Assembly (NCBI GenBank): GCA_964471115.1
Contig: CAYYFE010000016.1
Coordinates: forward strand, 6,874-70,873
Direction of reading: 5' to 3'
DNA: 64,000 nucleotides
DNA from: an uncultured Solibacteraceae bacterium
Lineage (GTDB): Bacteria; Acidobacteriota; Vicinamibacteria; Vicinamibacterales; SCN-69-37
Shown here: positions 13,122-54,587 of the stretch, in pieces
Layout: each line of letters opens with the position of its first letter
Position numbering within the stretch: the stretch's first letter is position 1
Position numbers and translations under genes: made by a program
Notes under the pieces: generated by a model
The model's input: only the letters and a program-made list of their open reading frames with translations
What the model was told of the DNA's origin: nothing
The model's database searches: none

Positions 13122-13233
13122 CCCGCGAGCCCACCAGCCCACGAACCCACGAACCCACGAGCCCACGAGCCCACGAGCCCACGAACCCACAAGCCCACGA
13201 GCCCACGAACCCACAAGCCCACGAGCCCACGAT
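13122..13233. repeat. 8-bp tandem array, consensus CCCACGAR, 14 units
   Basis: Fills the gap between the K+ channel stop and the AbgT promoter. Confidence 0.95.
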
Positions 13234-42231: not shown

Positions 42232-42798
42232 CTACCGGTGGGACTCGCCGCGGCCGGCGCGCTGCTGCTCCCAATACGCAATCAGCTTGGCGTACTGTTC
42301 CGCCGAGAGCACCTGATACACCTGATACAACATCAACGTGCGTGTCTTGTTGAGCGTGGTTCGCTGCGCCTCGACGCGGTCCAGCTGCACGGCGATGACG
42401 TCGCTGCCCACCTTCCGTTCGCGCAGCAACCGGTTGAGTTCGGTCTCCTGCTTGCGGAACTCGCGTTCCTGGGCCCGGGCGTCGGGCAGGCGCTTATGGA
42501 ACAGATCGTCAATCTGTTTGGACTGGTCGGCCGTGATGCCCACGGCCTGCATGGTCTTGACGTCCTTCCACCAGAACCAGTTGCCCCGGGGCGGCACCGG
42601 CAACCCGGGCTGCTGACCGCCGTCGCGGTTGCCCGACTGGCCCTGCCGGTTCTGATCGGCGGCCGGGCGGGCCTGGGTCTGCGCGGGTGAGGCCGGCTCG
42701 GGGGCCCCGGCCGTCTGCGCGTCAGCGGCCCGGGGAGTGGGGGCCCACACCGTCACGGCCAGCAGCAGCCCGCCAAGGGTCAGAAGTCTTGTCTTCAC
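42232..42798 (-). CDS. Spy/CpxP-like periplasmic helical protein
   Basis: Signal peptide, WWKD...GITADQSKQID, VLSAEQYAKL pattern. Confidence 0.7.
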   Translation of the reverse strand: MKTRLLTLGGLLLAVTVWAPTPRAADAQTAGAPEPASPAQTQARPAADQNRQGQSGNRDGGQQPGLPVPPRGNWFWWKDVKTMQAVGITADQSKQIDDLFHKRLPDARAQEREFRKQETELNRLLRERKVGSDVIAVQLDRVEAQRTTLNKTRTLMLYQVYQVLSAEQYAKLIAYWEQQRAGRGESHR

Positions 42799-42842
42799 AC
42801 AATCTCTTACGCCGGGGCAAAAACCCCTGTTTACGGGGGAGT

Positions 42843-44033
42843 TCAGGCGCCCGCCAGCGTTTCCAGGCGGGTGACGACCTGGCCGATGAGGTTATTCGGC
42901 GTCGAGGCCCCGGCCGTCAGCCCGATGCGCACCGGTCCGGCCGGCAGCCAGTCGGCCGTCACGATCTCGGCCACGGCGGTGGTGGAAGGCGCGCCAATGG
43001 GCCGATGCCGAATCTGACTGGCCGACACCAGGCCCCCGGGCTCGGCAATGTGGTAGGTACGCACGCGGTCGGCACAGATTTTCGCCAGATTGCAGGTATT
43101 GCTGGAGTTGTACCCGCCGATCACCACCATCAGGTCGAGCGGTTCCTGGTCGAGCAGGGCCAGCACGGCGTCCTGCCGTTCCTGCGTCGCCGAGCAAATG
43201 GTGTCGAACGCCCGGAAGACGTCGGCCAGCGCCGCCTGACCGTACCGAGCCGCCATCGCGCGGCCGAACATCGCGCCAATCTCGAGCGACTCACTCATGA
43301 GCATGGTCGTCTGGTTGGCGCAGCCGATGCGCTGCAGGTGCACGTCCGGGTCGAATCCGGGCGACGCGGCCCGGCCGAAACGCTGGAGAAACGCCGCGCG
43401 GTCGCCGCCGCGGACGATGTAGTCGCAGACGACCTCGGCTTCGTCCTTGTCGAGGACGATGAGGAAGTGGCCGCCGGGATACTGGGTGGCCTGCGACGCG
43501 GTGGCCTGGGTCTCCTCGTGCGACACCTTGCCGTGGATGACCGAGGTGAAGCCGTCCTGGGCGTAACGCTTCACGTTCTTCCAGACGGTCAGCACCGAGC
43601 CACACGTCGTGTCGACCAGCGTGCACCCCAGCCGATCGAGGCGCGCCATCTCGCTTACCGACACGCCAAACGCCGGCAGAATCACGACGTCGTCGCCGTC
43701 CAGCGTGGTCGCGGCCTCGGCCGTGTCGGACAGGAACCGGATGCCCTGCGCGCGCAACTGGTCGTTCACGTGGGGGTTGTGGATGATTTCGCCGGTCAGG
43801 AACACCCGCTTCTCGGGAAACCGCTTGCGGGTCTGATACGCGTAGTCCACGGCGCGGTCGACGCCGTAACAGAACCCGAATTCGCGCGCGAGATGCAGGG
43901 TGAGCCGCCCGCTGGTCCGCACGAATCCCGCGGCGCGGATGTCATCAACGATGGCCGAGTCGTACGCGACGGCCAGTTCGCCCGCCACCGCGGCCTTCAT
44001 GTCCAGACCTTTGCGGAAGACCAGTGAGGGCAC
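42843..44033 (-). CDS. ispH: 4-hydroxy-3-methylbut-2-enyl diphosphate reductase (long form)
   Basis: [46 protein letters not shown]. Confidence 0.95.
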
Positions 44034-44048
44034 AGGGAAATTGTACAG

Positions 44049-44160
44049 GGTCCAACGGGTCCAACGGGTCCAACAGGTCCAACAGGTCCAACAGGTCCAA
44101 CAGGTCCAACAGGTCCAACGGGTCCGGACCTGATGGACCTGTAGGACCCGTTGGACCCTG
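44049..44160. repeat. 9-bp array (GGTCCAACR)8 followed by 4 inverted units; symmetry centre GGTCC|GGACC at 44125/44126
   Basis: Read directly. Confidence 0.95.
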
Positions 44161-52438: not shown

Positions 52439-52504
52439 CACAGGAGGCACGGAGGCACGGAGAGTTCCTGGCTTGAAACCCTCCGCGTCTCCGCGCCTCC
52501 TGTG
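52439..52504. repeat. Inverted pair of 8-bp repeats (GGAGGCAC-type), 24-bp arms, 18-nt loop
   Basis: CACAGGAGGCACGGAGGCACGGAG / CTCCGCGTCTCCGCGCCTCCTGTG; abuts the stop at 52505. Confidence 0.85.
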
Positions 52505-53092
52505 TCAGGACTGCTTGAGGATGGTCGCCGTGACCTCGAGCGTGACCTTGCGGTCGGTGGCCGGGTCGGCCGACTCGGTGACGATCATCGGCTTGCCGTC
52601 GACCAGTGCGACGGTGATGGACTCGTGCAGCGTTGGAGCCAGGCCGAGGCGCTGGCCGGACGGGCCGGTGGGCCGCGGCGGCGTGTATTCAAAGGTCAGC
52701 CGCACAGAGACCAGCCCATTCTGATAGGCGCTGGCGAGGGCATCGACGTTCAGCGTGGCCTCCGTCTCCCGATTGTTCGTCCGAATCATCCCGCCGTTGC
52801 CGTTGAGCATCACCATCGTCGCGGTCTTCTTGGTGGGCGTGCCACCGTAGTTGTCCGAGAGCGTCAGTTGCAGGCGGATGTTGGTGGAGGCCGGCATGCC
52901 CTGGCTGGTCGGCAGACCCAGTGAGGGCGCGCGGTTGACCGGCGGTGCAGGCGTCGGCGCCTGCGCGGGCGGCGTCGCGCCGCGTTGGCCTGGCACGGCT
53001 GCGGGCGCCTGCGCGCTGGGCGGCGGCGTCTGCGCCGTCAACGGAGCCGCGACGATCGCGGTGATGAGAACGGTGAATACGAGTTTGCGCAT
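52505..53092 (-). CDS. Secreted hypothetical protein with Pro/Ala-rich N-terminus
   Basis: Signal peptide, beta-rich C-terminal domain; third gene of the ECF module. Confidence 0.75.
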   Translation of the reverse strand: MRKLVFTVLITAIVAAPLTAQTPPPSAQAPAAVPGQRGATPPAQAPTPAPPVNRAPSLGLPTSQGMPASTNIRLQLTLSDNYGGTPTKKTATMVMLNGNGGMIRTNNRETEATLNVDALASAYQNGLVSVRLTFEYTPPRPTGPSGQRLGLAPTLHESITVALVDGKPMIVTESADPATDRKVTLEVTATILKQS

Positions 53093-53103
53093 AACGGTTG
53101 CTC

Positions 53104-53673
53104 CTACCTTCGATTCGGGTCGCCGCTGATCGGCGACATCGTCATCGGCGTCACAGTTAATGGAGTGATCGACAGCAGGTCCGGTTGGATCGAATCGAAC
53201 GTCACCGGCTCAATCGCGATCTGTTCCACCGCCAACGCACCAATGGCGGCCAACGCCGGCACGCGCCGCGCTTCCCAGGCCAGTAGTTCGGGGCTGACGA
53301 CCGGCTGTGCGGCGGTTCCGCGGTTCCTGGGTTCCTGGGTTCTGGGGTTCCGTGCCTGGGTTCGTGGGTTCGTGGGTTCGTGAGTTCCGAGGTTCGCCGC
53401 CACAATCGCACTGCCTGCACCCTGTGCACCTTGTGCACCCTGTGGACCCTGTGCACCCTGTGGACCTTGTGGACCCTGTGGACCCTGTGGACCCTGCAGC
53501 CCTTGGATGAGCACGATGACCGTCAGTCCCGCCGCCACGAGTCCGCCCGCCCAGCGCCAGTCGCCGACGCGGCGGCGTCCGGGCGGCGTGGCGGCGTCCA
53601 GCCGCGCGCGAATGCGCGACTCGAGATCCGCCGACGGTTCGACCTCGGTGATCGCCCGCGCCGCGCTCAGCAT
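53104..53673 (-). CDS. Putative single-TM anti-sigma factor with repeat-derived collagen-like segment
   Basis: Follows an ECF sigma; [15 protein letters not shown] helix, (G-X-Q)9-10; start could extend to 53745 within the repeats. Confidence 0.65.
53314..53396 (-). repeat. Degenerate 8-bp array (GGTTCSTG on +, i.e. CCCACGAA family on -), about 10 units, in CDS
   Basis: Same family as 13122-13233. Confidence 0.8.
53413..53502 (-). repeat. 9-bp array GGT-SCA-CAR encoding Gly-Pro/Ala-Gln triplets
   Basis: Ten triplets: [30 protein letters not shown]. Confidence 0.92.
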
Positions 53674-53761
53674 CTCGTCATCTCGCCATGTCGTCATGTC
53701 GCCACCTCGCCACCTCGCCACCTCGCCATCTCGCCATCTCGTCATCTCGTCATCTCGTCAT
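53671..53761 (-). repeat. 8-bp array (CAYCTCGY on +; RTGRCGAG on -), about 12 units
   Basis: Spans from the sigma stop codon to the anti-sigma ATG. Confidence 0.92.
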
Positions 53762-54366
53762 GTGCGGGTGCGCAGCACACGTCGTGCTTCGGCGACGCGC
53801 CACTTCACGGTGCCGGACGGCACGCTCAGCATCACGGCAATTTCGTCGTACGTGTATTCGCCCGACGCGGCCAGGAGCAGCGTGTCGCGCAGTTTGGGCG
53901 TGAGGCCGGCAATCGCGGCGCGCAGGGCCGCGGCCTCGGCGCGGGCGGCGGCCACGCGCTCCGGGTCGGCGGCGTCCGACGCCATCCGGTCCAGTCCATC
54001 GCCCGCGGCCTCGTCAGCCGGGGTGACACGGCGCCGCCACCAGCGGTCGCGAGACTTGCGCCGGTCGAGCGCCTGCCGCCAGGTGATGGTCAGCAGCCAC
54101 GTCTTGAACGTCGAGTCCCCGCGAAAATCCCCGACCTTCCGCCAGGCCAGCACGAACGCGTCCTGCGCCACCTCTTCGGCGTCCTCGGGCCGCTGCAGCG
54201 CCGCCATGGCGGTGCGGAAGACCGTGCGGAAGTACAGGGACACCAGCGCGTCGAACGCCGCGCGGTCGCCGGCTTGCGCGGCCCGTACCCAGGCGCGCAC
54301 CTGCGGCGTTTCTCCCTCCAGGGGCCGGACAACGGGCGACTCGTCAGCGTCGGGCGTGACGGTCAT
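53758..54366 (-). CDS. ECF RNA polymerase sigma-70 factor
   Basis: [43 protein letters not shown]; start may be 54366 or 54396. Confidence 0.92.
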
Positions 54367-54441
54367 GGCCGGAATGGTCGCAACACGCGGCAGCACCGTC
54401 CCAGTAGACCGCCGGGCGGGCCGGATGGTTGGGTCGGCCGG

Positions 54442-54587
54442 AAGGGCACAGGCAACAGGGCGCAGGGCACAGGGAACAGGGAACAGGGAGACCTTTGGCC
54501 AAATGTGGCCTGTGGCCTGTGGCCTGTGGCCTGTGGCTTGCGGCCTTCGGCCTGTGGCCTGTGGCCTGTAGCCTGTAACCTGTAAGC
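54442..54587. repeat. Inverted pair of 7-bp arrays: (CAGGGNR)7 at 54442-54490 and (TGTGGCC)12 at 54504-54587
   Basis: Read directly; the spacer contains the palindrome TTTGGCCAAA. Confidence 0.92.

Follow-up and report, generated by a model that had tools for sequence, protein, structure and literature searches.

Can tandemly repeated DNA words, once they fall in frame, supply a bacterium with a new collagen-like domain? The question is raised by a gene in a stretch of 64,000 nucleotides (hereafter the window; contig CAYYFE010000016.1, assembly GCA_964471115.1) from an uncultured Solibacteraceae bacterium that GTDB places in the Vicinamibacterales of the Acidobacteriota. The gene (53104..53697, minus strand; all positions are those of the window) was delimited by open reading frame (ORF), orthologue alignment and family search. 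It encodes a single-pass membrane protein of 197 aa, a putative anti-sigma partner of the extracytoplasmic function (ECF) sigma factor encoded directly upstream. Just outside its membrane helix the protein carries ten uninterrupted Gly-X-Y triplets, written largely by a 9-bp tandem array. An original prediction, made from the letters of the window, saw in this the domestication of repeat elements as new protein sequence, possibly a trimerising collagen-like spacer. Here we argue that the tract is best read as a recent repeat expansion tolerated in a disordered spacer that is constrained in length, with an incidental collagen look, a reading to which we assign a probability of about 0.75. Taken this way the finding is one instance of a lineage-wide habit and introduces no novel type of domain or mechanism.

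Arrays inside an intact, conserved gene

Arrays at the locus were called by Tandem Repeats Finder (TRF). The unit of the 9-bp array (53419-53496, 8.7 copies, 89% matches) reads ACCCTGTGG on the plus strand and CAGGGTCCA on the minus strand, which is the coding one. This array forms the core of the Gly-X-Y tract (residues 66-95; 53413..53502, minus strand). The tract starts right at the end of the membrane helix with GLQ, continues with four GPQ triplets and onward, and has Pro at X in five of its ten triplets. What had been described as (Gly-X-Gln)10 stands as ten unbroken Gly-X-Y triplets, only nine of which are Gly-X-Gln, the tenth being Gly-Ala-Gly. Similarly, the single 8-bp array that was said to follow is present in the form of two sub-arrays, out of register and with 4-5 nt between them, which give 77% matches if scored as one array. 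Sub-array a (AACCCACG type, 53357..53387, minus strand, 3.9 copies, 95% matches) encodes approximately THEPTNPRT and sub-array b (AACCCAGG type, 53314..53352, minus strand, 4.9 copies, 83% matches) encodes about 13 residues. Another 8-bp array (CGAGATGA / CGAGGTGG, 53671..53761, minus strand, 11.4 copies) spans the junction of the two genes. It reaches from the stop codon of the sigma gene to codon eight of the 197-aa gene, where it encodes MTTWRDDE. It supplies a Shine-Dalgarno-like GAGGTG, and nearly all of its units contain an ATG or GTG, which hence occur in all three frames.

The open frame 53104..53745 (minus strand) holds the 9-bp array as well as both 8-bp sub-arrays. Alignment with the N-termini of orthologues (MTTWRDDEM) favours the ATG at 53697, which has a GAGGTG 5 nt upstream, over the start of the longer ORF at 53745. 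The conserved C-terminus is in frame with the N-terminus through all arrays and every residue that is invariant across 14 orthologues is retained, which confirms that the arrays lie in frame within a real conserved gene. Three independent runs yielded Logan contigs that agree with the window at 100% identity throughout both 8-bp sub-arrays and in six copies of the 9-bp unit, so that an assembly artefact can be dismissed as the source of the arrays; the contigs break within the perfect part of the 9-bp array and so leave its full copy number unconfirmed. That the region is misassembled, or the gene a decaying pseudogene whose repeat peptides are never made, has a next to negligible probability. 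The difficulty of assembling repeats would fit such a scenario, as would an exact look-up in a collection of 15 billion proteins, in which four variants of the protein that differ in start codon were all missing; the three matching assemblies, the frame that spans conserved N-terminus, three arrays and conserved C-terminus with its invariant residues intact, and the Shine-Dalgarno-like word ahead of the start codon all speak against it.

Structure prediction by AlphaFold2, with the orthologue alignment as input, and the alignments themselves divide the protein into four parts. The predicted cytoplasmic N-terminal domain (residues 1-47; 53557..53697, minus strand) has two short helices (3-17 and 25-36), with a block-mean predicted local distance difference test (pLDDT) score of 74-88 over residues 1-40, and conserved columns A13, R14, E20, P21, R28 and R32. 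Residues 1-47 contain no Cys or His and hence no H-x3-C-x2-C motif of zf-HC2. The segment RRRVGDWRW, in agreement with the positive-inside rule, precedes the transmembrane helix (residues 48-67; 53497..53556, minus strand; predicted helix and sequence). Nearly all residues from 69 to 128, which span the 9-bp and 8-bp linker arrays, have pLDDT below 50. The conserved, predicted periplasmic C-terminal module (residues 137-197; 53107..53289, minus strand; alignments A1 and A2 and AlphaFold) shows short helices at residues 136-152 and the motif AW.ARR.PAL ... SIQP..LSITPL, which reads E.AW..RR.PAL ... SIQPE.LSITPL in the orthologue alignment.

The order of sigma gene, 197-aa gene and a third gene for a 195-aa protein is kept in 16 same-genus genomes, with identities of 56-77% for the sigma factor, 32-40% for the 197-aa protein (plus one short match of 72%) and 42-56% for the third protein. 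A homologue search with the whole protein was swamped by its collagen words, returned collagen-repeat proteins only and was uninformative on the family. A profile search of 1.84 billion representative proteins identified 1130 clusters at E<=1e-3, with full-length matches, which defines a widespread, uncharacterised family of ECF-sigma-linked membrane proteins. Members are 157-210 aa long (median 173), with a conserved N-terminus, some 35 aa in length, that is followed by a membrane helix, a linker without conserved sequence and the conserved C-terminal module. A metagenome scan with the family alignment gave nine loci, all at 33-48% identity, and no same-species alleles.

None of 136 family members matched a Pfam model at threshold. 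The protein has no Pfam, NCBIfam or PDB match, the family profiles A1 and A2 are without Pfam or solved-structure match, and no curated anti-sigma domain (zf-HC2, RskA or other models) was recognised in the protein or in either profile. The label anti-sigma factor, given by the original prediction, thereby comes down to what can reasonably be inferred from gene context and topology. The gene is adjacent to an ECF sigma gene on the same strand, an order kept in the 16 genomes, and the 197-aa protein is probably a minimal anti-sigma factor or sensor, predicted to have a cytoplasmic N-terminus and a periplasmic C-terminus. Known membrane-bound anti-sigma factors of ECF sigma factors include RseA, RsrA/ZAS and RskA, as well as short class II domains such as CnrY. 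The 197-aa protein resembles these in the position of its gene, directly 3' of a co-directional sigma gene, and in its predicted topology of a small helical cytoplasmic N-terminus, single membrane helix and periplasmic C-terminus; it differs from them in the missing zinc motif, the lack of a match to a curated model or structure, and a predicted cytoplasmic part of only about 45 aa.

Repeat growth at the linker site of orthologues

The linker measures 73 aa here, near the upper end of a distribution with a median of 60 aa and an interquartile range of 57-66 among family representatives, and would act as a spacer that is held in length and free in sequence. Directly after the helix at least eight orthologues have the seed GTCCAGGGTCC, read as GTC CAG GGT CC (VQGP). 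At the linker site 7-bp units GTCCAGG or GTCCAGA are found in orthologues L003, L004, L007, L012 and L037. The 8-bp unit GTCCAGGG reaches up to 18.8 copies in L014, L036 and L038, further 8-bp units are CCCAGGTC (L011), GGTCCTGG (L034) and CGAAGTTC or CAGGAGTC (L015, L016), and L009 has a 9-bp unit, CATCTCAGT, that encodes (SSQ)n. The site is free of arrays in L002, L005, L010 and L017, and L006 has three copies of an unrelated 9-bp unit only. The linker is a hot spot for repeats in this genus, with units that are specific to the species. Arrays also occupy the sigma junction of L005 (8-bp CGAGATGG, 8.8 copies, the same MTTWRDDE), L002 (8-bp GGAAATGG, 5.9 copies) and L012 (7-bp); in other congeners the sigma gene and its partner gene abut or overlap.

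Near-identical orthologue contigs from different metagenomes (L036, L038 and L014/L030; 98.6-99.9%) all begin inside the 8-bp GTCCAGGG array. L036 (1-153) and L038 (1-93) are 98.6% identical and differ in this array by an in-frame indel of 48 bp, one super-unit. Because of this indel, and of contigs starting inside the array, the orthologue arrays can be regarded as dynamic, with persisting variants that keep the frame. Among the older orthologue arrays, those with 7- and 8-bp units now consist of in-frame super-units of 24 or 48 bp.

The 8-bp units of the 197-aa gene bring to mind slipped-strand contingency loci such as the tetranucleotide repeats of Haemophilus influenzae (PMC2651432): the 8-bp arrays, perhaps together with the junction array, would toggle the ECF regulon in a subpopulation. 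As in such loci the unit inside the ORF is not a multiple of three and a change by one unit truncates the product. In simulations, adding or removing one or two units (8 or 16 bp) in either sub-array leads to proteins of 159 or 167 aa in which N-terminus, membrane helix and GPQ tract are preserved and the conserved C-terminal module is lost, while three units stay in frame. The genome is slippage-prone and contigs of several assemblies break in such arrays. However, the sub-arrays are short and impure, and Logan contigs of two independent runs show one identical 8-bp allele, without on/off variants (contigs drop rare variants). The sole polymorphism seen among orthologues is the 48-bp in-frame step, the super-units of the older arrays are in frame, and arrays with 7- and 8-bp units are depleted in coding sequence. 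Unlike contingency loci, furthermore, the arrays are found in hundreds, mostly intergenic, in a free-living organism. We consider a switch of this kind improbable.

Repeat arrays across the genome and the Gly-X-Y tract

TRF was applied to the whole 4.39-Mb assembly, and arrays with a period of 7-10 and at least 3.5 copies were collected. This yielded 359 arrays, 149, 126, 55 and 29 for periods 7, 8, 9 and 10, that are made of only 80 canonical units. Six units account for half of the arrays: ACTCCGC (56), ACCTCGCC (44), ACCCTGG (22), ACAGGGTCC (21), AATCCTC (21) and AGATGGCG (17). The unit families of the 197-aa gene are all common (ACAGGGTCC, AGATGGCG, and ACGAGCCC with AACCCACG in 13 arrays). 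Allowing one mismatch raises the 9-mer family ACAGGGTCC to 25 arrays, and two mismatches raise it to 31. About 13 arrays belong to the 8-mer family, among them CCCACGAG with 13.9 copies at 13122-13232, and GGTCCAACA at 44049-44125 represents a neighbouring family (6/9 bases in register). The original prediction was thus right in taking the repeats of the gene for DNA-level arrays of dispersed unit families, similar to those between genes.

Some further features of these arrays may be mentioned here. Several of the common units carry GGAG or GAGG on one strand, which are Shine-Dalgarno-like words. In the GGTCCACAR family, to which the 9-mer of the gene belongs, many arrays start immediately at a stop codon (TAG or TAA, then CAG). 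At 44049-44157, GGTCCAACR (8.6 copies) is followed at once by the opposed GGACCYGTW (3.6 copies), and this array-built hairpin begins about 20 nt past the stop codon of ORF 42687..44027.

Coding-like ORFs hold only 38 of the 359 arrays by a composition-based test that is approximate, uses no gene caller and accepted some antisense frames (C58, C1, C25:2235), which amounts to a depletion from coding sequence. The share is 18 of 55 for 9-bp units, an enrichment, as opposed to 4 of 149 for 7-bp units. Such a period bias is what one would expect from selection against arrays that break the frame.

Elsewhere in the genome the GGTCCACAR 9-mer likewise encodes (GPQ/GAQ)n, for example at C25:3584-3652, C12:17217-17295, C15:3573-3670 and C15:3059-3103. 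Two of the proteins concerned are cytoplasmic: an ABC-F ATPase with a GPQ array between its second ABC domain (ABC_tran) and ABC_tran_CTD, and a 2-oxoacid dehydrogenase E2 acyltransferase with a GPQ/GAQ array between its lipoyl and E3-binding domains. GPQ arrays are also present in the C-terminal tail of a major facilitator superfamily transporter and ahead of a coiled-coil segment in an unassigned protein. In ten congeners the same place of the E2 linker has other repeat-derived peptides (SRGAEVPK, GSTGSTG, VQGSRGPG and others). Since they are present in the cytoplasmic ABC-F and E2 linkers, GPQ arrays are a general linker filler in this organism and not a trait of extracytoplasmic signalling. 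The Ala/Pro-rich swinging-arm linkers of E2 proteins are a parallel for the 197-aa protein in that they are constrained in length and flexibility and not in sequence, and the E2 of this genome has the same array; the linker studied here differs in being periplasmic, membrane-adjacent and part of a signalling protein.

Does the tract nevertheless work as collagen? By the measure of an uninterrupted (Gly-X-Y)n it qualifies with its ten triplets. The Pfam Collagen model (PF01391) gives 20.4 bits for a 213-aa form and 22.2 bits for the 197-aa form, which does not reach the gathering threshold of 27.2, and the NCBIfam models Lcl, SclA and SclB match with 22 bits against cut-offs of 325-500. No recognisable trimerisation or nucleation domain was found by domain matching in the 136 family members, and AlphaFold shows short helices only. 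The tract is not conserved: it is found in none of the 16 syntenic congeners, and the longest Gly-X-Y run in any of the 135 other family representatives is at most four triplets. The comparison of orthologues called for by the original prediction thereby has absence as its outcome, and ancient, synonymously diverged collagen repeats were found in none of these 135 relatives.

The unit itself goes far in accounting for the periodicity. Of the six frames of the 9-mer GGTCCACAG, three (GPQ, STG/GST and CGP), two of which are on the sense strand, place Gly at each third position, so that a collagen look is nearly automatic. The remaining frames give peptides rich in Trp, Cys, His or Arg. The GPQ frame is used in six of eight coding-like occurrences (composition test, p=4e-4 against 1/6), a statistic inflated by about three frames that look antisense, and in five of six ORFs with a recognisable protein. 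That such peptides would be poorly tolerated suffices to account for the predominance of GPQ among coding occurrences. The codons of the array are rare in the genome (GGT 8.5% of Gly, CCA 3.8% of Pro, GCA 3.0% of Ala) and as such bear the mark of a DNA-level origin, not of selection for translation.

It is accordingly very improbable that the tract works as a collagen-like triple helix, trimerising the protein and holding membrane and sensor module at a rigid distance. In its favour are the ten unbroken triplets with Pro at X in half of them, the weak Collagen, Scl and Lcl profile matches, the preference for the GPQ frame, and the fact that bacterial collagens fold without hydroxyproline (PMC4066190). 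Against this, the Collagen score stays below threshold, and the module is conserved while the tract is in no orthologue, which implies a function that is independent of the tract. Scl2 has (Gly-X-Y)79 together with a trimerisation domain (PMC4066190), the counterpart of which was not detected here. The same array also fills cytoplasmic linkers that need flexibility, such as the E2 swinging arm, the tract is written in rare codons, and half of the frames of its unit yield periodic Gly regardless. Host-guest peptide data indicate that ten hydroxyproline-free triplets with Gln at Y would be marginally stable at best without a nucleating domain. The trimerising spacer of the original prediction is thus disfavoured.

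A recent, tolerated expansion would account for these observations as follows. A conserved partner of the ECF sigma factor has a disordered spacer of about 55-75 aa between its helix and a C-terminal module of 60 aa. In this genus the spacer would be a hot spot of tandem growth, by replication slippage or microhomology-mediated tandem duplication, that starts from the ancestral word GTCCAGGGTCC (Val-Gln-Gly-Pro) at the end of the helix, and species would expand units of 7, 8 or 9 bp from it. Two GTCC words at 7-nt spacing are a textbook substrate for microhomology-mediated tandem duplication, a process which a 2026 preprint reportedly treats. In this genome the 9-bp unit would have grown in the frame GGT-CCA-CAG into (Gly-Pro/Ala-Gln)9 plus Gly-Ala-Gly, with an 8-bp unit growing alongside. 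Selection would demand only that the frame is kept and that the peptide is harmless, i.e. hydrophilic and flexible, and collagen-like periodicity would be a side effect of a G-rich 9-mer. What was termed domestication of repeat elements is thus better described as in-place expansion of an ancestral seed in a spacer that accepts any sequence.

Several points weigh against this reading. The 25 arrays of the GGTCCACAR family are built mainly of two unit variants, GGTCCACAG (CAG, 72 units) and GGTCCACAA (CAA, 32 units), others being rare. This CAG/CAA dimorphism is shared by 21 of the 25 arrays and about half of them, including that of the 197-aa gene, end in GGTGC. Independent in-place slippage alone does not explain such shared variants and endings, and the dimorphism suggests either that arrays exchange sequence with one another or that mutation is strongly biased. 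The preference for the GPQ frame could reflect positive use of GPQ beyond mere tolerance, and a monomer model by AlphaFold cannot show a triple helix. Lastly, recency, copy-number polymorphism and neutrality are properties that we infer for the 9-bp array of the 197-aa gene.

The first of these points suggests that the GPQ array could have been copied in ready-made from another array of its family, by ectopic recombination, gene conversion or an unknown means of dispersal. This comes near to the domestication of repeat elements proposed by the original prediction. Apart from the shared variants and endings, such copying would fit the fact that 359 arrays derive from only 80 unit types. On the other hand, the seed GTCCAGGGTCC is already at the site in many orthologues, where related units differ in length. 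The surroundings of the 25 family arrays were searched for conserved flanks of the kind a mobile element would have; beyond partial units there were none, with no conservation past 3-6 nt, and hence no sign of a transposable unit. With a conserved seed at the site, and with related units found in sister species, growth in place is favoured, and a ready-made copy is unlikely. A broader proposal combines several of the above elements: a repeat generator of the Vicinamibacterales with a small fixed vocabulary of 7-10 nt units, whose arrays are repeatedly captured as coding cassettes for flexible or collagen-like spacers and have given rise here to a nascent trimerising collagen helix plus a stochastic 8-bp off-switch. 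As a whole we deem this very unlikely.

Related systems and the surrounding genes

The arrays have counterparts among long simple-sequence repeats (SSRs). Dispersed families of these are the GGGAATC heptamers of Xanthomonas and the GGGGA(C/T)T repeats of Nostoc (PMC4692102), as well as the TAACTGA repeats of Beggiatoaceae (PMC4679880). The arrays described here are of the same sort, consisting of head-to-tail units within 5-11 nt at many unlinked loci. As in Xanthomonas, Nostoc and Beggiatoaceae and in the short tandemly repeated repetitive (STRR) heptamers of cyanobacteria, a few units occur at hundreds of loci; they are strongly under-represented in coding sequence, often lie past stop codons between co-directional genes and vary in copy number. 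In contrast to those families, unit lengths of 7, 8, 9 and 10 coexist here, the units are not of G-quadruplex types, and about 11% of the arrays are in frame inside genes as linker-coding sequence. A literature search found no paper on such repeats in Acidobacteriota (Vicinamibacterales).

With regard to collagen-like proteins, BclA of the Bacillus exosporium has a variable (GPT)n tract. Its length, like that of the tracts in the Scl proteins, changes with the number of DNA repeats. Scl1 and Scl2 are bacterial collagen-like proteins of Streptococcus pyogenes (PMC4066190). The tract described here is similar to these in that Gly-X-Y stems from near-identical 9-bp DNA units and needs no hydroxyproline. 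It is dissimilar in having ten triplets instead of dozens, a sub-threshold Pfam score and no detected trimerisation domain, and in being absent from all orthologues and present in cytoplasmic proteins of the same genome.

The locus offers a clean natural case of DNA slippage, if this is indeed the mechanism, writing protein sequence. One ancestral seed of 11 nt at one homologous site would have given 7-, 8- and 9-bp arrays in sister species, one of them with a ten-triplet Gly-X-Y. That collagen-like periodicity comes nearly free from a G-rich 9-mer bears on the origin of bacterial collagen-like proteins. It also calls for caution in repeat-rich lineages, where Gly-X-Y tracts should not be equated with collagen adhesins, nor the genes that carry them with pseudogenes.

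The genes around the 197-aa gene are arranged as follows. The gene directly upstream (53758..54396, minus strand) encodes an ECF-type sigma-70 factor, recognised by Pfam (Sigma70_r2, 1.1e-14; Sigma70_r4_2, 1.8e-9) and NCBIfam (TIGR02937, 83.6 bits with a cut-off of 42.9). Its stop codon (53758-53760) lies 60 nt before the 197-aa gene, on the same strand. A plus-strand ORF at 53380..54585 is antisense to the sigma gene and was rejected as spurious. The third gene of the trio (52505..53092, minus strand; ORF and synteny) starts 11 nt past the 197-aa gene; its 195-aa product has a signal-like N-terminal segment and a Pro/Ala-rich stretch and was without match in a Pfam scan. A scan for promoters and terminators gave no match.

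Repeat-built hairpins border the trio on both sides. Directly past the stop codon of the 195-aa gene, at 52443-52500, inverted 8-mer arrays of GGAGGCAC (2.5 copies) and CCTCCGCG (2.6 copies) form a hairpin that has no T-tract and is placed like a terminator. In the space that separates the divergent RNase R and sigma genes, at 54443-54585, opposed 7-mer arrays of AGGGMAC (6.7 copies) and TGTGGCC (10.4 copies) fold as one long imperfect hairpin (-73.5 kcal/mol, z = -3.9, equalled by 0 of 200 shuffles), to which Rfam gave only a sub-threshold chance match with a microRNA. The 7-mer CCACAGG corresponds to the 9-mer of the 197-aa gene less two bases.

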